Source of the DNA: Bacillota bacterium
GTDB lineage: Bacteria; Bacillota; Ch66; Ch109
DNA: 64,000 nt
Assembly (NCBI GenBank): GCA_050952625.1
Contig: JBMNLH010000005.1
Coordinates: 74,636 to 138,635, forward strand
Direction: 5' to 3'
Shown here: piece after piece, positions 2,701 through 53,383 of the stretch
Layout of the letters: the number at the start of each line of letters is the position of its first letter
How positions within the stretch are numbered: the stretch's first letter is position 1
Position numbers and translations under genes: made by a program
Notes under the pieces: model-generated
What the model was told of the DNA's origin: nothing
Databases searched by the model: none
What the model saw: the letters and a program-made list of their open reading frames with translations, nothing else

Positions 2701-5026
2701 ATGCCAGACAGAGCCGCAATTTTTGAGTTGGATAATTTTTGTTTGGATAATTATCACGTTAAATTAAATGAGGTGCTGTTTCACAATGCCAATGGGTATA
2801 TCGGGGTGCGTTACGATTTGGAAGAAGGCTATCCGGGCGAATATGATGTGACCCCCAGTCAATATATCAACGGGTTCTATGACTTTGCCAAGTTAGGCCA
2901 GGCGGAAAAATTGTACGGGTTGACAGATGAAAAACAAACCATTTTAAACATTGCGAATACCCAGCCGATCCGGATCACTTTTGAGGATGAGGAGTTCAGC
3001 ATGTTTACCGGCACCGTGCTGGAGAGCCGGCTGCGCCTGGATATGAATCGGGGGGTAACGGTCAGGGAGGTCAAATGGCGTTCGCCCCAGGGGAAAGAGA
3101 TTAAGTTAACGGTTACGCGAATGGCCTCTTTTTATCAACTTCCATTATTTACGATTGAATATGAAGTGGAGCCGTTAAATTTTACCGGCGATGTTGTGAT
3201 TGAATCGGTGCATCAGGGAAATGTGTTAAATTATGTTAATCCGGCGGACCCGCGGATTGCGCAGGAACGGATTCGGTATTTGACCCCCATCAGTTGTGAA
3301 ATCAAAAAGGGGGCGTCTTATATAACCTCTAAAACCTCAAAATCAGGCCTGGAGGTCTGCACCGGCGTCAAAAACCTCTTGCCGCAAGAACATCAGCAGG
3401 AGTTTATTATAGATAATAATGATGCTGTTTGTCGGTTTAATGCCGTCGCTAAACAGCGAAAAAAAATCCGGTTGATCAAGTATGCCGTTTTTTGCGATTC
3501 GATTCGCTACCCGGATTGTCGGCAGCAGGCAGAAACTGAACTGAAGAAGGCTTTATCGGTGCCTTTGGAAGAGTATTACAAGAAGCAAGCCGCTTACCTG
3601 GCGGAATATTGGGATAATTGTCTCGTGGAAATCGATGGGGATGAATCGGTGAATAATGCTATTCGCTACAATTTATACCAATTATTTCAATCAGTGGGCA
3701 AGGACAAGTACTGTAATATCTCCCCGAAAGGATTAAGCGGCGATGGTTATGAGGGGCATTATTTCTGGGATTCCGAGATGTATATCTACCCCTTTTTCAC
3801 GATCACCAATCCGGCCATTACCCGCAAGCTGCTGGAATACCGGTATGCAACGCTTGACCTGGCTCGGGAGAATGCCCGGATATTAGGTCATCAAAGCGGG
3901 GCGCTGTATCCCTGGCGCACGATTATGGGCCGCGAATGCTCCGGGTTTTTCCCGGCCGGTTCGGCCCAGTACCATATCAATGGCGATATTGCCTATGCCA
4001 TTATTGCTTATTATTTAGCGACCAAGGATTTGGCGTTTATTCGAGAAATGGGAGCCGAGATGATTTGGGAAACCGCTCGGCTATGGATTGATGTGGGCAG
4101 TTTTTACGCCGGGAAATTTTACATCAATGACGTCACCGGTCCGGATGAGTACACCTGTATCGTAAATAACAATTATTACACGAATGTGTTGGCGCAATAC
4201 CACTTGACCTGGGCGGTAAAGTTTTACCATCTATTAAAGGCAGCTGGCGGGCTAGCAGATTTGGAACGGAAAATCCAGATTAAAGAGTCGGAAATAGCGC
4301 TTTTTCAGCGAGCGGCTGAAAGCATGTACCTGCCCTACGATGCGCAGTTAAAAATTAATCCGCAGGACGACTCCTTCCTGCAGAAGAAACCGTGGGATCT
4401 GGCCAGTATTCCGCGAGACAAGTTTCCTTTGCTGCTCCATTATCATCCTCTGCATTTATACCGGCACCAGATCTGCAAACAGGCGGATACGGTGATGGCG
4501 CATTTTATCCTGGAAGACGCGCAGTCCCCGGAAACCATCTTAAACTCGTTTAATTACTATGAAAAGATCACGACCCACGATTCTTCGCTGTCCCGGTGCA
4601 TCTTCAGCATTGTGGCGGCCCGGTTGGGGATGGTCGACAAGGCTTACGCCTATTTTCGAGCACACGGTTCGTTTAGATCTGGACAATCTGCATCGGAATA
4701 CGCCAGACGGCATTCATACCGCCAATATGGGCGGTAGTTATATGGCTGTGGTCTATGGCTTTGGGGGGTTCCGGCTGAAAGAGAGCGGCTTCTATTTTGC
4801 GCCGGTTTTACCGGCGGCCTGGACCGCCTATCGCTTCAAACTCCGCCTGGAAGAGAGCCGGATTGCCGTGGAGGTCAAGGAACACGAGTGCGTGTTCAGG
4901 CTGGAGAACGGCCCGGCCATAAAGATATTTGTCTATGGCCAAGAGTACCGGTTAACTGACACGCTGACGGTCGGCCGACAGCCGACAGCCACGGGGACGG
5001 TTCTTGTGGCCGGTAAGTCGCGGTAA
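2701..5026 (+). CDS. GH65 trehalose/kojibiose/maltose phosphorylase; one apparent +1 frameshift near 4655
   Basis: Motifs ANGYIGVR, KGLSGDGYEGHYFWDSE, GPDEY, KQAD and HDSSLS. The C-terminus (DLDNLHRNTPDGIHTANMGG) continues in ORF 4559..5026 after an extra T in a T run. Confidence 0.88.
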
Positions 5027-5405
5027 CATATTAATCCATAACGGATTCGTTTCATGCAGGGTGCAGAGCCGGTTGAGTCTACTCTCGGTAACATACTAAT
5101 CCTTAACGCCCGCCGGCAGCCGGCGGGCAACAAACTGGCCTGCTCAAGTCGCGGTAACATACTGGCCGGTAAGTCGCGTTCCAGCCAAGGGGACGCGTTA
5201 TGTCGTCGAGGTGAGTTTCCAACGAAAAGGGATCTGGGAATAGGGATCTGGCTCGTAACATATTAATCCATATTCGTTATGTCAAAACATGGGCCATGAT
5301 CTATATATCTAGCGGGGATGGGCAACCATCTAACTAGGAGTTAAAGAAGCAGGAATTTCTAAAGCAGGAATATTGTTCAACAAAGAAAGGAACGGTTTCG
5401 GTTGC

Positions 5406-12219: not shown

Positions 12220-12286
12220 GTGGACAAGTGGGACACGGGGCCTTTTTGCAAACTCCCGATACAACTTCTGAAATGTTTATCTGGAC

Positions 12287-12390
12287 AAAAGACCCCCATT
12301 TCTATAAGTGGGGGTTACCTTGTTTAAACTTCGGGTGGAGTAGAGTCTCCATCTGAAGCCTCGGTGTTCAGCGAAGCTGAACGAGTTCGC
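12287..12390 (+). repeat. Dispersed ~105 bp MITE-like element, family M
   Basis: aagac(t/c)ccc..ttctataag..ggggttacc...aacttc(a/g)ggtggagtagagtctccatctgaag...tgttcagcgaagct.aacgagttc. Full or partial copies at 13544-13577, 14218-14375, 15325-15392 and 48933-49005, all on the + strand and intergenic. Confidence 0.8.
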
Positions 12391-12609
12391 TAGGCCATTC
12401 TAGACACCTTCCCATAGCGAACACCTTCCATAATAATTTTGAATTTTTTAATAATCTAAGATTAATTCTTAGATTATTTTGTTCCGGCAACAATCATCAA
12501 CAAATGTTTGTCCGTGTCCGTGTCCTGTCCCCGTATCCGTATCCGTGTCTGTGTTTGTGTCTGTATCCGTGTCTCGTCCCCGTGTTCCGGTTGGAAATAG
12601 CAATTAAAT

Positions 12610-14203: not shown

Positions 14204-14530
14204 TTTATAGCTGGATCAAAAAGACTCCCGCTTCTGCAGGGGGTTATCCTATTTGAACTTCAGGTGGTCTTTTTTTACCGCTGCCTTGAGTACCCTAGGC
14301 GGGGGGTACCCTATTTGAACTCCAGGTGGAGTAGAGTCTCCAGCCCCGATGTTCGGCGAGGCTAAACGAGTTCATTTTAGGCTATCCGTGAGGTACATTG
14401 CATTTTATTTTAGAATTGTGTAAAATTTATAGAAAAAAGTTTAAAATAAGGCAGATTTAAGGCAGGAATATAGAAAGCTGATGTTGAAATATTCTAATAG
14501 ATTTTAATGTTTTGAAAGGAGAATCTGACC

Positions 14531-15637: not shown

Positions 15638-18112
15638 ATGTCGTCTAATCTCTATCCGTCTTATCAAGTTTATCTGGCCTGGAACAATACTCATTACCGA
15701 ATTTTTATTAGCCATTGGCCAGAACTGGATCTAAAAATCCTCTTTCAGGAGCAAGGGCTGAATAAATTGGGTCTGTTGACTCGACCCCTGCCAATTGGGA
15801 TCGCCCATTATGTTGCCGGCTGGATTGCGTCTGAGACGGAGAGGCGTTTGGCTTTGTTGGCTTCGGCTGATCAGACATCGTTCCCCGGGGTTAAAGCTGG
15901 CGGTTGGCGAAGTTGGTTAATCCGCGGTCAAGAAAGATTGCGTCGTCTAACTAGGACAACTGATTCGGCCAATACCACCGAGTTCGGGAATCTATTGATG
16001 CCGGAAAAAAACGGTCGGGCTGAGTTTGGTCCGGCGTTACTGCACCAGCGTTTTCGGTTGGTTCAAAAAGCCCTTAAATCCTTGGAAGCCGGAGCTTTGC
16101 CCGAAAAACTTGCTTGGGCTGAGTTTAAGCCAAGGATCTTGGTTGTCGGGGACTCAGGGTATGCGGCTTCTGGTGCCGGGCCTTGTTTCTCGGTCGATCC
16201 GGCTGGGTCTGAATCATTGGGTGAGCAGAAAGTTCTGAAGGCTTCAAATGCTCTGGAAGACGCCGGGGAAGCCCCGTTGCTTTCTGCTTACGAACCCGGG
16301 TCGGTAAAATCAATTCAGATAAATCAAGTTTCGGCTGCTTCGGATGCTTTTGCAGCAGCGGCAGTACCGGGAACTAAGGCGATCTTGAGCGAAATATTAG
16401 CGGGCCGGGTGTTGGTGGCCGGAGAAGTCAAGACCATGCTTGCGACTAATGGACTAATATCGGAAGCGGCATCGGGACCGTGGCTGCCTCTCCCTATCCA
16501 AAATATCCTTCAGGTCCTGGCTTTGCGGGGGGAGGTTTGTTTATTGCCGTCGGTAAACCGGAGTCAGCTCGGTGACCCGGTATGTCAGCGGTGCGGCCAG
16601 TCTCGGGGGATTAAGTCTTCGGTCTGTCATTACTGCGGTCGTTTGGCGTGTTATTACTGTGAAGAATGTCTTAATCTGGGTCTGGCGCGGGAATGTTTGC
16701 CGTTAATCGCGATGCCCGGACAAAGTCGCCTTACAGGCTTGCCGGAGACAATCCCGACGCCTCAGGCCTTGTCTCACGCACATCAGGGCTTGCGTCATTC
16801 ATCTCCGGCCTCGCCTCTCGCACCTCAGACTTCGCGTTATTCGCCGCCGGGCCCGCATCTTACCCCTCGAGGTTCGCGTTATTCAGAAATTCAGGCACCG
16901 TATCAAACACCTCCGGTTTCGGGTCCTATCCCAGACGTTTCGGCCCAGAGTCAAGAGATAAGCCAGGAGGAGGGAGACCGGAAAACTACGGGAATTCCAG
17001 CCCCGGTCTGCTTGGAGTTTGCGCTTACCCCGGCCCAGCAGCGAGCAGCAGAAGAGGTTCGGCAGTTTTGGTTATCTGGGAAGCAGGCGGAGTGTTTGGT
17101 TTGGGCGGTCTGTGGAGCGGGAAAAACAGAGGTTGTTTTTTCAGTATTAGCCGAGGTTCTAGCCCGAGGGGGCCGCGTTTTATACGCTATTCCTCGTCGA
17201 GACGTCGTGCGGGAGCTAGAGCCCCGACTGCGGCAGGCTTTTCCGAATTACCGGGTCTTAGGTCTTTACGCTGGGAGCGGCCGCCGGTACGCAGCAGCGG
17301 ATATTTATGTCGCGACTACTCACCAATCCCTGCGGTTTTACCAAAATTTTGACTTGGTTATCCTGGATGAGGTTGATGCCTATCCTTACCGGGATAGTCC
17401 GATGCTGCATTTTGCCGTGCAGCGCGCTCGAAAACCAGAGGGTAAGACCGTGTATCTTACGGCTACGCCAAAGTCAGCCATGCAGCAACTGGCTTTGAAA
17501 GGCGAAATGGGCCTGGTTTATATCCCGGCTCGGCATCATGGTTATCCAGTTCCGGAGCCAGAATTGCTGGCTGAAAGGCAATTGCGTTATCCCCGGACCG
17601 GCCAGGAGTTGGGGCTGCCGCAGACTGTTATTGAATTGATTTATCAAAGCGTGGTCGTTGAGCAGGTCCGGTTGTTTGTTTTTGTTCCCTCTATTTGGTT
17701 GACTGAACAGGTAGCCCGGGCGATAAACCGCGTGGTTGAAAGTGATGATCGGTTTGAGAATAAGAGGGCCAGAAACTGGGCGCAATTCTGTCACGCCCGG
17801 GATCCTTGGCGGGACCAGAAGCGGACCGGTTTTTCCCGGGGAAATTTTCCGATCCTGGTGACGACTACTATCTTGGAGCGGGGTATTACGATCGCCCCGG
17901 TTAATGTGCTGGTACTTTTTGCAGAGTCGGAAAAAATCTTTGATGAGGGGACTTTGGTGCAGATGGCCGGGCGGACCGGTCGAACCGAGGCTTACCCGGA
18001 GGGAAAAGTCTGGCTGGTTGGTGCCTCCGTCAGTCCAGCAATGCGGCAAGCGCGCGACAGAATTCTGGAGATGAATCGCATAGCCAGAGATCGGGGGTAT
18101 TTGAGAGGATGA
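15638..18112 (+). CDS. comFA: ComFA-like DEAD/DEAH-box helicase (competence) with long low-complexity insertions
   Basis: Zn-binding CxxC clusters, WAVCGAGKTE, DEVDAYPY, TTILERGIT and QMAGRTGR. Confidence 0.88.
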   Translation: MSSNLYPSYQVYLAWNNTHYRIFISHWPELDLKILFQEQGLNKLGLLTRPLPIGIAHYVAGWIASETERRLALLASADQTSFPGVKAGGWRSWLIRGQERLRRLTRTTDSANTTEFGNLLMPEKNGRAEFGPALLHQRFRLVQKALKSLEAGALPEKLAWAEFKPRILVVGDSGYAASGAGPCFSVDPAGSESLGEQKVLKASNALEDAGEAPLLSAYEPGSVKSIQINQVSAASDAFAAAAVPGTKAILSEILAGRVLVAGEVKTMLATNGLISEAASGPWLPLPIQNILQVLALRGEVCLLPSVNRSQLGDPVCQRCGQSRGIKSSVCHYCGRLACYYCEECLNLGLARECLPLIAMPGQSRLTGLPETIPTPQALSHAHQGLRHSSPASPLAPQTSRYSPPGPHLTPRGSRYSEIQAPYQTPPVSGPIPDVSAQSQEISQEEGDRKTTGIPAPVCLEFALTPAQQRAAEEVRQFWLSGKQAECLVWAVCGAGKTEVVFSVLAEVLARGGRVLYAIPRRDVVRELEPRLRQAFPNYRVLGLYAGSGRRYAAADIYVATTHQSLRFYQNFDLVILDEVDAYPYRDSPMLHFAVQRARKPEGKTVYLTATPKSAMQQLALKGEMGLVYIPARHHGYPVPEPELLAERQLRYPRTGQELGLPQTVIELIYQSVVVEQVRLFVFVPSIWLTEQVARAINRVVESDDRFENKRARNWAQFCHARDPWRDQKRTGFSRGNFPILVTTTILERGITIAPVNVLVLFAESEKIFDEGTLVQMAGRTGRTEAYPEGKVWLVGASVSPAMRQARDRILEMNRIARDRGYLRG

Positions 18113-19146
18113 AACGGTTTTTGTCGGGCTTATTAGCTAAAATCAGCCGGGACAGTAAATCTGTTTCCGCGTCGGACGATAAACCTGTCCCCATGTCAGG
18201 CGATAGACCTGTCCCTGTGTCCCGCAATAAACCTGTCCTCGTGTCCCGCGATAAACCTATCAGCGTGTCCCAGTGGCTTGATTTAATCTATCCTCCTCCC
18301 AAAACTTGTCCGTTATGCGGGAAGACCTGGTCAAAGCAGCGGGGGGCGGCGGTTTGTGCGCGGTGTATTGGTGAGATTGCGGAGCTTCAGGCGGATATGG
18401 TTGTTTGTCGGCACTGTGGCCGATTCTTGGCAAGGGGATCCGTGGTTAGCAGATCGGGTTTAGCTGATGAATCAGTTCTTTTCTCCCAATATATTGATCA
18501 ATCAGGCAGTCAGGCAAGTGTTCTGACGGTCGAGAATTTTTGCTGTGCTGACTGCCGCCAAAACCCGCCCGCCTTCCAAATGGCCCGGGCGATTGGCCCT
18601 TTTGAAGGCCTGCTGCGTGAGGCGGTGTACCAGCTGAAGTATCAGGGCAAGCTGTCTTTGCGGGAGCCATTGGGTTGGTTGATGGCGGAAGTAATCAGAA
18701 AAGAGTGGGCAATAAAAGGGCCGCCGCTGGTCGTACCGGTCCCTCTTCACCCTAACCGGCTGGCGGAACGCGGTTTTAACCAGGCTGAATTACTGGCAAC
18801 AGCAGTGGCTCGTGAATTAGGCTGGCGATTGCATAATCAGTTGTTAATCAGGCAGGTGGATACCGTTTCCCAGACTCGGCTTAACCGGTCAGAACGCTTA
18901 ATTAACCTGCAGGGTGCCTTTGCGGTGCGCGAGTCAGACAGGACCGTTCGTCAGGAGATGATAAATGCTGGTTGTGCGGCGGAGAAACAGGTGCGCGAGC
19001 CAGACAGGATCGTTCGTCAGCCGATTGTCTTAGTTGATGATGTTTTGACGAGCGGTACAACGAGTGAGGAGTGTGCCCGGGTGCTGCAGCAGGCCGGCTA
19101 CGGCCCGGTGATGGTGATCACGATCGCTACGGGTAAAATTGCCTAA
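18109..19146 (+). CDS. comFC: ComF/ComFC family protein (double zinc ribbon + PRTase)
   Basis: CPLC..CARC, VPVPLH..RLAERGFNQAE and LVDDVLTSGTT; overlaps the comFA stop (ATGA). Confidence 0.9.
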   Translation: MKRFLSGLLAKISRDSKSVSASDDKPVPMSGDRPVPVSRNKPVLVSRDKPISVSQWLDLIYPPPKTCPLCGKTWSKQRGAAVCARCIGEIAELQADMVVCRHCGRFLARGSVVSRSGLADESVLFSQYIDQSGSQASVLTVENFCCADCRQNPPAFQMARAIGPFEGLLREAVYQLKYQGKLSLREPLGWLMAEVIRKEWAIKGPPLVVPVPLHPNRLAERGFNQAELLATAVARELGWRLHNQLLIRQVDTVSQTRLNRSERLINLQGAFAVRESDRTVRQEMINAGCAAEKQVREPDRIVRQPIVLVDDVLTSGTTSEECARVLQQAGYGPVMVITIATGKIA

Positions 19147-19662: not shown

Positions 19663-19989
19663 TATTGTTGCGGTTATGTTTAGGGATGATGTTTTCACGC
19701 TAATTCCAGAGGGGAATCTCGCTACTAGTTATCGCTGCGGTTATGTCTAGGGCCTAACCATGGATGAAACATTAAATCAGTATCGGACAGTTAAAAATCG
19801 GGGTCTAAGGCTGATTAAGCTCGTGGTGCTGAGCAAATCAGCGGTAATTTGCTTTTTAGCGACTAATTGGAGTCGGCTGGGGTATCGAAAGATAAAATAA
19901 GAGACTGATAAGATTATTCGCATTTACTTAGGTTATTGTACTTTAACCGGCTAGATTATCTGGTCCGTGGACGAGGGGGAATAAGGATT

Positions 19990-34525: not shown

Positions 34526-35147
34526 ATAACCGGGGGGACGGTTCTTCCGGCCGGTTGTTGCCACGGGGAAGGTTTTTCCGGCCGGGATAAAATTGGCACC
34601 GGTCGGTTGTGGGACAGGTTAAGTTCTTTAAGAACAATTACGCGCGTGTGATAACTCGGTCTGCCGGCTAGACGGGGAACGAACCTTGTTGCTTCGGATA
34701 GGACTTGTCTCCCCCTCTAGCCCCGCCATACGCTAACTGGGAACGAACCTTGTTGCTTCGGACAGGCATCAAACTCGTCCGGCGAGCTCAAACAGCGATA
34801 CCAGCTGATCCTCAGCCAGCTCTGTTCCTTGTGTAAGCTGCCAATCGCTGACCTGCGTTAAACCATGGCTCGATCATGGTTTTTCCTGTTCTGGACAGCG
34901 TACGAAGCGGCATGGGGGTCTAATAAGACGTTGTTTCTATCAGTCACATGGTCGGGGTAAAGGAGTAGAAACGGATTCTGGGGTTTAATAAGATGTTTTT
35001 CTATCAGTTTTGAAAGTTGGGCAATTGAGTGCATGAACTCAAAAATAGGTCTTTGGTCCCGATCAAACTGCTAGTATTTTGACTGTTTTTGTCGTATTAT
35101 ACATTGCAGGGTATTAAGATTAATAATTAACGTGGATAATATTGTAA

Positions 35148-35248
35148 CAAAATAAATGGGCAGCGTATTCGAAAGAATACTACGCAAAGCTACGGGTCTA
35201 AGGTTTTAGGTCTTAACCTGAGGCTATGATCGCCGGGCTGCATTACAC
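35148..35248 (+). ncRNA. Cyclic di-GMP-I (GEMM) riboswitch
   Basis: GGGCAGC-GTATTC-GAAA-GAATAC-TACGCAAAGCTACGGGTCTAAGG...CTATGATCGCCGGGCTGC, with GNRA tetraloop and receptor; lies upstream of an MCP gene. Confidence 0.88.
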
Positions 35249-35310: not shown

Positions 35311-35542
35311 AATAACTACTTAAACACTGGAGGTGAAACACTACGGCTGTCTAGCAGTATCTTGATCTACTCTTACTTTTTCTCGGGGATAGACGATATC
35401 CATGCCACATCTGTATAGCAATATCATTGATCTACTCTTACTCCTACGGAACTTCGGCTTCCACGCATACAAAAAGTCTAGCAACTTTATGATCATGATT
35501 GACTCTTACTGGGTTTAAAATTAAATAAGGGAGAGGAATATT

Positions 35543-37534: not shown

Positions 37535-37799
37535 CCACATCAGCCCAGTAGCCCAGCAGCCAAAGGGACGGTTCTTGTGGCAGGGAGCAGGGGGGACGGG
37601 CTAGCCAAAGGGACGGTTCTTGTGGGAAGGAAGCCGGGACGACTCCCCGACTTCCTCTATGAAACAGATGACCGAATGCAGCTGGATGATCGAGCAGCTG
37701 ACCAAGCTGCCCCCGACTTCCTCATATGAAACAGATAACCAAGACCAAGGAATCTTCAGTAAGCCAAAACCAGGTTCCCCAGCTTCCTCTTATGAAACT

Positions 37800-39405: not shown

Positions 39406-39774
39406 TATGAAACTATGAAAACAGATATGTATTTTGAGCAGAAAAGAACGAACTTATTGGTTTTGCTTGACACTCCTCAAGGCTGAAGTCAGGCACTTGA
39501 CGACCTATTTTGCTAATAGTAACCAACTTGTCCGAATTCAGTTTCCGGAGTAACTGAGCAGTGAAAAAGGAAATCGAGCAGATGTTGAGGAAGGCAACTT
39601 CCAGGAATTAACAAAGCAGAAGTCTAAAAGGCCTGGTAGAGTATTAATCTATCGGGTCATTTGTTTTTCAAAGGAGGCACGAAGATTAAGGGGATGCGAG
39701 CACCATCCTGGTTTCTCCCTCAAGATTCAGGCGGTAGGAGAACGGTTCTTGTGCTCCCATATCCCCTTATCCCT

Positions 39775-39857
39775 TTATCTCTCTATCTCTCTATTTCTCT
39801 ATCTCTCTGTTTCTCTATCTCTCTGTTTCTCTATCTCTCTGTTTCTCTATCTCTCTA
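39775..39857. repeat. Pyrimidine-rich tandem repeat (16-bp unit TTTCTCTATCTCTCTG, about 4-5 copies) abutting a triple REP cluster
   Basis: Read directly from the sequence. Confidence 0.85.
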
Positions 39858-40088
39858 CGAGAACCGTCCCCGTGGCTGGGTGCATCTCTCCATCTCGCCA
39901 CGAGAACCGTCCCCGTGGCTGCCGCGAGAACCGTCCCCTTGGCTGGGTTCGCCTGCTTTTCTTTTTCCAGGTGTTAGCTGAGCAAAGATTTCATATACTT
40001 GTTTTAGGTAATAATCCAGAAGCAAAAGGGATGTTACAAGCGGCGAAGACGGGTTTGGGGCCGGTTGTATGATTAAGGGGGTAATAAT

Positions 40089-51978: not shown

Positions 51979-53288
51979 GCGATCGCAAGATTTTTGTAGG
52001 GTATGTCGCTCGGGAAGAAGGCGATGGTGCCCTGGACCTGGTTATCTCGGCCGAGGGTAAGGTTAAGGAAGCCCGGTATAAAATCTGGGAGGCACCCCGA
52101 TTTTTTGAGTCTTTCCTGGTTGGCCGCAAATACGATGAGGTGCCGGAGTTGGTGCAGCGAATCTGCGGTATTTGCCCGCATCCGCACAATCTAGCCGCGG
52201 CCCAGGCAGTTGAGCGGGCGATGGGGATTGAGGTCAGTGAGCAGACTCGTCTGCTGCGTCGGCTGCTACTAGTCGGGGACTGGATCATGAGCCATTCCTT
52301 GCACGTCTTTTGCCTGGCCGCCCCGGACTATTTGGGTTATGAAAGTGTCATCAGCATGGCCGGGAATCCAGAACTGCTACCGGTGGTCCAAAAAGCCCTG
52401 CAGTTCAAGCGGTTGGGGAATGATATGAGCGTCCTCTTAACCGGACATGAGATTCAGAACCGCACCTCTGTGGTCGGCGGGTTTACAGCGGTGCCGGCTG
52501 GTGCGGATTTAAGGAAGATCCGGGAACGGCTGCTGGGAATTAAGGAATTTGCCCTGGAAGCGACGCAACTGACCAAGGATCTGTTCTCAGCTGCCCCTTA
52601 TCCGGAGTTGGTGCGGAAGTGCGAGCACGTGGCTCTTCATTCGCCTAAAGAATACGCGGTAGAGGCGGGACGGCTGGTCTCGACCGAGGGATTGGATATC
52701 TCGGATTGGGAATATCCGGAGTGGCTGATTGAAAGCCATGTCCCTGGCAGTAACGCCAAACACGCCATCATTCGGGGGCGGGATTCTTTCTTGGTTGGCC
52801 CGTTGGCTCGGGTAAACCTTAATTTTGATCAGTTGTCCGCTGATGCTCGGGCAGTAGCGGCTCAAGTCGGTTTTGTCGCTCCAAACTTTAACCCGTACAT
52901 GAGTATTGTGGCCCGGTGCATTGAACTGGTGCACGCGATTGATGAGGCGGTCCAGATCATTGATCAGTTGGGTAATCCCAAGTATGAAGAACCGAAATAC
53001 ACCATCCGGGCTGGGGAGGGGTATGCGGTAACCGAGGCTCCGCGTGGCATTTGCTGCCACGGTGGTCGGATTGATAAGGACGGGGTGGTTCAGCAGTGGG
53101 ATATCGTGGCCCCCACCGCGCGTAACGTCTACAACATTGAAAAAGACCTGAATGAGTTTGTCCCCAAGCTGCTGGATTTGTCAGATGAGGAACTAGCCTT
53201 GAAGTGCGAGATGCTGATCCGCAGCTATGACCCTTGTCTGTCCTGCTCAGTGCATTCGATCAAGGTCCGGGTGCATCGAGAGCAGTAA
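51975..53288 (+). CDS. [NiFe] hydrogenase large (alpha) subunit, group 3b
   Basis: L1 RICGICP, EAPRG and L2 DPCLSCSVH plus a cleavable C-terminal extension. Confidence 0.93.
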   Translation: MSDRKIFVGYVAREEGDGALDLVISAEGKVKEARYKIWEAPRFFESFLVGRKYDEVPELVQRICGICPHPHNLAAAQAVERAMGIEVSEQTRLLRRLLLVGDWIMSHSLHVFCLAAPDYLGYESVISMAGNPELLPVVQKALQFKRLGNDMSVLLTGHEIQNRTSVVGGFTAVPAGADLRKIRERLLGIKEFALEATQLTKDLFSAAPYPELVRKCEHVALHSPKEYAVEAGRLVSTEGLDISDWEYPEWLIESHVPGSNAKHAIIRGRDSFLVGPLARVNLNFDQLSADARAVAAQVGFVAPNFNPYMSIVARCIELVHAIDEAVQIIDQLGNPKYEEPKYTIRAGEGYAVTEAPRGICCHGGRIDKDGVVQQWDIVAPTARNVYNIEKDLNEFVPKLLDLSDEELALKCEMLIRSYDPCLSCSVHSIKVRVHREQ

Positions 53289-53383
53289 GAAGTGGTAAAT
53301 GCCTGCTCACTCTACGAACCGGTCGTCCGGGACGGTACAGCGGGAGCAGTAAGAAGGTTCGCTAATCGCTAATCTAGGTTATA

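Follow-up and report, generated by a model that had tools for sequence, protein, structure and literature searches.

A 66-nt repeat-insert-repeat unit within comFC as a probable footprint of off-target spacer integration

The comFC unit and its empty sites

How can a conserved protein gene come to hold two nearly identical stretches of 30 nt around a short unrelated sequence, and still be read through? This question is raised by a ComF-family gene (ComFC/GntX-like, 345 amino acids) on the + strand at 18109..19146 of the window, by which we mean the whole 64-kb stretch of DNA analysed here (C5:74636-138635). The protein combines a double zinc ribbon at its N-terminus with a phosphoribosyltransferase fold at its C-terminus. 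An earlier note on this DNA had described a direct repeat around 36 unrelated bases, in frame within comFC, and our analysis confirmed this description. The sequences GTGCGCGAGTCAGACAGGACCGTTCGTCAG (18925..18954, + strand) and GTGCGCGAGCCAGACAGGATCGTTCGTCAG (18991..19020, + strand) form a direct repeat with 28 of 30 identical positions, the differences being at positions 10 and 20. The 36-mer GAGATGATAAATGCTGGTTGTGCGGCGGAGAAACAG that separates them (18955..18990, + strand) is unrelated to either flank. Owing to a shared G on the left (G18924), the first copy can also be read as 31 nt and the insert as 35 nt, which leaves the period at 66 both ways. With up to three mismatches allowed, the 30-mer occurs at only two places in the window (18925 and 18991), and none of 100 dinucleotide shuffles contained any match to it.

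In the protein, GAFAV (269) is followed by VRESDRTVRQ (273-282), encoded by the first copy, then by EMINAGCAAEKQ (283-294), encoded by the insert, and by VREPDRIVRQ (295-304), encoded by the second copy, after which PIVLVDD (305) begins. The whole unit lies in frame within the open reading frame.

Comparison with relatives indicates the direction of the change. The 3' half of comFC aligns with a metagenome contig (L033) at 535 of 560 positions (95.5%), with a single internal gap of exactly 66 nt. This agrees with the statement of the earlier note that a gain of 66 bp keeps the frame and adds 22 amino acids. At the corresponding site L033 has one target copy, GTGCGCGAGCCAAACAGGAACGTTCGTCAG, from which the first comFC copy differs at positions 10, 13 and 20. 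Both comFC copies have a G at position 13 where L033 has an A, which agrees with a duplication that arose on the branch of this genome (G000).

More distant ComF orthologues point in the same direction. Of 13 orthologues, which represent other genera, families and orders, 11 carry only one ~10-residue loop and lack 22 residues precisely at the insertion point; none of the 13 contains the comFC insert. In the two others, both from one genus (L009 of G005 and L011 of G002), this loop holds insertions of ~13-37 residues that are unlike the one in comFC. The ComF loop appears to be a recurrent site of length change. In the sister species (G001; 92-97% DNA identity, 78% complete), comFC is missing from the assembly.

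The organism is present in roughly 14 bioreactor and digester metagenomes. The unit was also compared with contigs of four sequencing runs from four studies. Contigs from three different studies (X12 record 4, X7 record 13 and X4 record 6) cover the unit from end to end and are identical to it, with no gap. One more contig (X4 record 7; 72 nt, depth 3) joins 18923 straight to 18990 and differs in two other letters; it is the empty-site form, from a second strain in the same bioreactor. The earlier note had expected close relatives to carry a single 10-residue copy with no insert, and this is what L033, X4 record 7 and 11 of the 13 orthologues show. It had also considered that relatives might carry a longer tandem repeat here, or that the duplication might be an assembly artefact. 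No longer tandem repeat is present at the L033 site, and the three independent runs carry the identical structure. Judged by these comparisons, the 66-nt unit in comFC is confirmed as a derived insertion that is polymorphic between co-occurring strains.

The resident CRISPR-Cas system and units of similar size

The dimensions of the comFC unit have a counterpart in the same genome, which encodes a complete type I-B locus consisting of cas6, a 603-aa ORF without a family match, cas7, cas5, cas3, cas4, cas1b and cas2. The only Cas1 found in the genome lies within this locus (cas1b, profile score 357.6 bits vs a cut-off of 304.1), and cas4-cas1b-cas2 adjoin the leader of an array with 30-nt repeats. 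This I-B array, which is divided between two contig ends, comprises 182 repeats of 30 nt, and its 180 spacers are mostly 36 nt (88) or 35 nt (43) long, followed by 37 nt (22) and 34 nt (8). Hence, the 30+36+30 layout of the comFC unit equals one array repeat length plus one modal spacer length. Two type III arrays are also present, with a period of 69-78 nt.

As the 'repeats' of the comFC unit consist of comFC sequence, the unit is no functional CRISPR array: the 30-mer lies inside the coding sequence and shares 11 of 30 positions with the CRISPR repeat, no more than at random. The CRISPR repeat was not found in the sister species or in four family members (G001-G005), although this is no evidence of absence, since the sister assembly is only 78% complete and arrays often fail to assemble. 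Within the array G000:C2:155482-161305, blocks of two or three consecutive spacers are duplicated (e.g., 155482-155648/156077-156243 and 161068-161171/161202-161305), which points to internal recombination in the array.

Units of the same size are far too common in this genome to be expected by chance. The 2.9-Mb genome was scanned for isolated direct-repeat pairs with periods of 30-200 nt, at least 19 of 22 matches, an unrelated middle and no other period at the locus, with the arrays masked. This yielded 66 pairs, 26 of which have a period of 62-67 (27 with the comFC unit). The 24 flanking periods (50-61 and 68-79) contain only 8 pairs, or 0.33 per period, which predicts ~2 pairs for the range 62-67 (Poisson p = 2e-20). 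The type III arrays have no Cas1, and the isolated pairs show no excess at their period of 69-78. No peak appeared when control genomes were scanned likewise. From G013, without a Cas1 above the cut-off, 800 kb contained 20 pairs, 2 of them at 62-67 and both of minimum length. G025 has two Cas1 genes, and its arrays have periods of 65-68 and 70-74; in 400 kb of it, none of the 7 pairs falls at 62-67. Since the array periods of G025 are similar and yet these 400 kb contain no scars, the process is not general.

The scars amount to roughly 9 per Mb genome-wide and ~50 per Mb on the contig of the window. Their spread is uneven: this contig (C5) has 6 pairs (7 with comFC) in 139 kb, contig C1 has 12 in 1.73 Mb, and five other contigs have none. 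All 27 pairs contain 1-6 mismatches, mostly transitions. None is perfect, and thus no very recent event is seen. Either the process has recently been quiet, or recombination soon removes repeats of 30 nt that are still perfect and only 36 nt apart. The one site signal seen is a modest excess of G at the 5' ends of the targets (21 of 54, compared to 23% expected; p = 0.006, in a test chosen after viewing the data). Pairs of other periods have 12 of 76, and the CRISPR repeat begins with G on the leader side. Two of the genome-wide pairs, C1:112210 and C5:71019, were rejected as integration scars because they are made of a short palindromic element (core GCCACGGGGACGGTTCTTGTGGC, with variants). 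In the window, units of this family occupy intergenic positions at 289-390, 34528-34587, 37558-37631 and 39893-39947.

For two further units, the sister species retains the empty site: C1:247322, which lies in a UvrD-like ORF of 1385 aa, and C5:49800. Together with comFC this gives three verified insertions, each of which adds 66 nt. Their apparent splits are 30-31+35-36 (comFC), 32+34 (C1:247322) and 29+37 (C5:49800), and each can also be read as 30+36. The 32 can be read as 30 because two chance matches extend the copy, and the 29 because at C5:49800 the base of the sister species matches the second copy for one more position to the left. Other units are common to both species and represent older events (C1:1487051, C3:96029 in a metallo-beta-lactamase-fold gene, and the units at 35359 and 5016 of the window). 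Several loci are messier than a single integration. C4:50073/50173 and C4:105641 lie in larger indels that are rearranged relative to the sister species, and C1:1505823 (AddA-like) may be a coding tandem repeat. Of two other loci, C1:246189 lies in a 262-nt stretch missing from the sister species and C1:1497467 in a replaced stretch of 1.2 kb.

The window itself contains several sibling units. The one at 5016..5108 (28+37+28, period 65, with an extra partial copy at 5144) is intergenic and, as it is identical in the sister species, represents either an old event or a functional element. The intergenic region that holds it (4950-5260) has only ~4 differences in 311 nt between the two species, whereas the adjoining DNA is 92-97% identical; this region may be a functional RNA or a regulatory region. 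At 14239..14332, with a period of 62, the sister species has four diverged repeats with three inserts, a higher-order duplication. The pair at 34672..34766 (31-nt copies, 94% identity, period 64) lies within a 452-nt stretch that the sister species replaces by 25 nt. A mini-array of three copies at 35359..35510 has periods of 65 and 68 and the same length in the sister species, with 98% identity. A weaker pair at 19663..19752 (23-nt copies, period 67) lies just 3' of a yvyF-like gene, and the pairs at 37711..37798 (22-nt copies, period 66) and 53270..53356 (23-nt copies, period 64) are marginal.

The mini-array is located downstream of a c-di-GMP-I riboswitch (35149-35245, 62.8 bits), which ends ~110 nt 5' of it; both are length-conserved in the sister species. 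This riboswitch was the sole Rfam match in the window, and Rfam gave nothing at the comFC unit.

The distribution of the units over genes bears on the proposal of the earlier note that such insertions persist in genes only when their length is divisible by three. ORFs of at least 250 aa make up 64% of the genome but contain only 5 of the 27 units (binomial p = 1.4e-6). All five have a period of 63 or 66, whereas elsewhere the period is a multiple of three in 7 of 22 units, as often as chance predicts. In four of the five host proteins the unit is flanked on both sides or enclosed by Pfam domains, and if the AddA-like locus C1:1505823 is left out, all four remaining units in long ORFs are still in frame. 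The proposal is thus borne out, and the few units in long ORFs, all of them frame-keeping, mean that the series shows selection at work.

Candidate mechanisms for the 66-nt gain

Because the unit has the size of one repeat plus one spacer of the genome's own CRISPR system, the 66 bp in comFC were probably left by the resident type I-B Cas1-Cas2(-Cas4) in a single off-target integration of a spacer. In such an event, the integrase would carry a spacer-length fragment of ~36 bp and attack the two comFC strands ~30 bp apart, the spacing that its ruler normally measures across the CRISPR repeat. Gap filling would then duplicate the 30-bp target on both sides of the insert. The gene would have stayed open because 66 is divisible by three and because the target encodes a permissive surface loop, just before the PRPP-binding strand. 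From the geometry, the derived state, the empty sites, the matching CRISPR-Cas system and the sibling units observed here, we infer that Cas1-Cas2 was the catalyst.

This picture has two weak points: the targets do not resemble the CRISPR repeat (see below), and no source was found for the insert, which therefore provides neither a protospacer nor a PAM. The earlier note had suggested a similarity search with the 36-mer, and for the proposal of the note the outcome is neutral: the own genome gave no match beyond chance 13-15-mers, the exact 36-mer is absent from the viral contigs, and blastn gave a best E value of 5 against phages and nothing against plasmids. The same phage and plasmid searches with the 34-mer insert of the sibling C1:247322 found nothing either (best E = 1). 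Comparison of the array spacers with the own genome returned only within-array duplicates and short chance matches, from which no PAM could be derived.

Among 29 inserts, only C1:1487051 has a convincing source in the own genome, while two others merely repeat their own element or neighbourhood. The insert at C1:1487051 matches 30 of 33 positions of the genome's own mnmE-like gene. This homology ends at the right edge of the insert and 2 nt inside its left edge, which indicates that a spacer-length piece of DNA was moved.

Several alternative explanations have to be weighed against off-target spacer integration. The main rival is an undescribed, non-CRISPR process that inserts a short piece of DNA with a compensating target duplication, and thereby adds a near-constant 62-67 nt. 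Such a process would account for targets without similarity to the CRISPR repeat (mean best identity of 12.2 of 30, vs 12.1 for random genomic 30-mers; p = 0.26), for the periods of the pairs, which average ~1 nt below those of the array (64.7 vs 65.7; Mann-Whitney p = 6e-4), and for the insert at C1:1487051 that copies the genome's own DNA. It would also fit the apparent splits, in which the duplication (22-37 nt) and the insert (27-46 nt) vary while their sum stays at 62-67. This constant sum, however, is imposed by the selection criterion of the scan, and mismatches obscure where the copies end; for all three events with empty sites, a reading of 30+36, the modal array values, is possible. 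Moreover, a convincing source elsewhere in the genome exists for only 1 of the 29 inserts, and the idea of a hairpin element finds no support in the inserts, which fold no better than shuffles (mean z = -0.49; comFC insert -0.79). We know of no candidate enzyme for such a process, and consider it unlikely.

The remaining alternatives concern the comFC locus itself. The 66 nt might be ancestral, with the relatives having lost the unit by recombination between the 30-nt copies. Deletion between direct repeats separated by 36 nt should be easy, and L033 and the X4 strain could share one such event. Yet, 11 of the 13 orthologues have the short form and none has the comFC insert, and the two copies share the G at position 13 where L033 has an A, which makes an ancestral unit very unlikely. 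A tandem duplication at the locus or replication slippage, after which the middle part diverged, might be suspected because the loop varies in length among relatives, with the longer insertions of G005 and G002, and because ComFC and ComFA carry short coding tandem repeats elsewhere in this genome. This explanation also seems very unlikely, as neither side of the 36-mer has sequence related to it, and as L033, at 95.5% identity, has only one target copy and one clean gap of 66 nt. Full divergence of 36 nt between 30-mers that are still 93% identical is not credible at the distance of L033. Chance similarity or an assembly artefact, which a 9-contig assembly from a bioreactor-type community might bring to mind, was tested and is practically excluded by the shuffles and by the contigs of three studies that span the unit unchanged. 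Furthermore, assembly collapse or duplication would not create the two differences between the copies.

Off-target integration by Cas1-Cas2 has a precedent in Escherichia coli. According to papers (10.1101/148544, PMC7054753, PMC6698737) that cite Nivala, Shipman & Church 2018 (Nat Microbiol 3:310), over-produced Cas1-Cas2 integrated elsewhere in the E. coli genome, such off-target integration can spawn 'neo-CRISPR' arrays, and circumstantial evidence was obtained for two other species. As far as these citations describe them, the neo-CRISPR arrays resemble our units in the repeat-length duplication of chromosomal DNA around a spacer-length insert, the matching adaptation module, the occurrence at several loci and the presence of some multi-unit cases. 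In contrast to the E. coli arrays, the units described here are natural rather than derived from over-expressed Cas1-Cas2, and would belong to type I-B (30/36) instead of I-E, with a putative catalyst. A further difference from the arrays as cited is that the comFC unit lies in frame in a conserved protein gene, where it is kept as a 22-residue loop and is polymorphic between strains.

The type I-B system of Haloarcula hispanica offers a second comparison. In the description by Wang et al. 2016 (PMC4872114), its ruler duplicates the 30-bp repeat, and duplicates 29-33 bp when the anchor motifs in the repeat's middle are displaced. The 30-bp duplication in comFC is in line with this description, and such a scatter would explain some of the variation in duplicated length at sites without these motifs. 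However, the H. hispanica events took place at a true leader-repeat site, and the motifs AACCC and GTGGG given for it (PMC4872114) are missing from the comFC target.

The layout of repeat, spacer and repeat away from cas genes is also known from bona fide CRISPR mini-arrays and orphan arrays (Shmakov et al.). In contrast to those, the 'repeats' in comFC are unique coding sequence unrelated to the repeat processed by Cas6, and hence no crRNA is expected from them. In transposons and casposons, staggered integration followed by fill-in likewise produces direct repeats that flank an insert. Known transposases and casposases generate duplications of 2-15 bp around kilobase-sized elements with their own ends. 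In comFC, by contrast, a 36-bp insert that lacks terminal repeats is bordered by a duplication of 30 bp.

Full-text searches for spacers inserted into genes, in frame or ectopically, gave no natural in-frame case in a conserved gene, judged by their listings. In the papers on ectopic spacer insertion, 'ectopic' appears to refer to positions within the array. Off-target spacer integration is known mainly from E. coli over-producing Cas1-Cas2. We think it quite likely that the comFC unit is a natural member of this class, and one of ~25 scars of off-target Cas1-Cas2 integration in the genome. The series is natural and has a clear polarity, with three events whose empty sites occur in relatives, one of them polymorphic between strains of the same reactor. 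It offers a testable system for the fidelity of the type I-B integrase and for the genomic cost of adaptation. A new consequence would be that a conserved protein gained a surface loop partly encoded by a captured spacer. The chances are about even that in this lineage the CRISPR integrase, or an undescribed enzyme with a 30+36 footprint, acts as a steady chromosome-wide mutational force, which left ~25 scars, seeds multi-unit mini-arrays and, where the gain is divisible by three, writes in-frame loops into ComFC, the UvrD-like helicase and the metallo-beta-lactamase-fold protein. If so, off-target adaptation would be a so far unrecognised natural source of in-frame protein insertions.

The loop in ComFC and its surroundings

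The family assignment of the host protein draws on several lines of evidence. Its N-terminal zinc ribbon matches PF18912 (DZR_2) at residues 57-111, with 34.5 bits vs a cut-off of 27. TIGR00201 was the second-best named match, after GntX, and scored 75.5 bits, below its cut-off of 233.55. This match is divided over two stretches, the best of which stops at residue 279, a short way into the insertion. The acidic PRPP loop (VDD..T.G.T) is well preserved, with V257, D258, D259, T262, G264 and T266 invariant in 15 sequences. An AlphaFold2 model of residues 53-345, built from these 15 sequences, reached a pLDDT of 82.8. Its top structural match was ComF of Helicobacter pylori (7p0h_A, E = 1.7e-5), and PRPP amidotransferases came next.

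In the model, the first copy, the insert and the second copy together form a block of 32 residues (model 221-252), with pLDDT values of 65, 51 and 45, respectively. The block is flanked by two confident strands, E219-221 and E254-261, the latter being the strand of the PRPP loop (pLDDT > 90). Because this low-pLDDT block sits between two confident strands, the insertion is predicted to occupy a surface loop and to leave the core intact. Most likely, ComFC gained a surface loop of 22 residues, made up of an extra copy of the 10-residue loop and 12 residues from the insert. The three sites that vary among the three target copies, i.e., the two copies here and the one of L033, are all non-synonymous (S/P/P, D/D/N and T/I/N).

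The 5' neighbour of comFC is a helicase-like ORF of 824 aa and the 3' neighbour a YvyF-family gene of the flagellar region. Coding tandem repeats occur in the N-terminal extensions of both competence genes. ComFC has four units of 24 nt at 18156-18275, which encode 8-residue units such as DKPVPMSG and DRPVPVSR, and the helicase-like ORF has three units of 21 nt at 16761-16844. Two other repeats were seen in the window. An element of ~120 nt at 12272-12397 occurs once here. The sister species has ~40 copies of it, spread over its contigs with 73-91% identity, and it resembles a dispersed repeat of the MITE or REP type. At 39752-39864 there is a microsatellite, (TATCTCTC)n, with a unit of 8/16 nt and ~11 copies.
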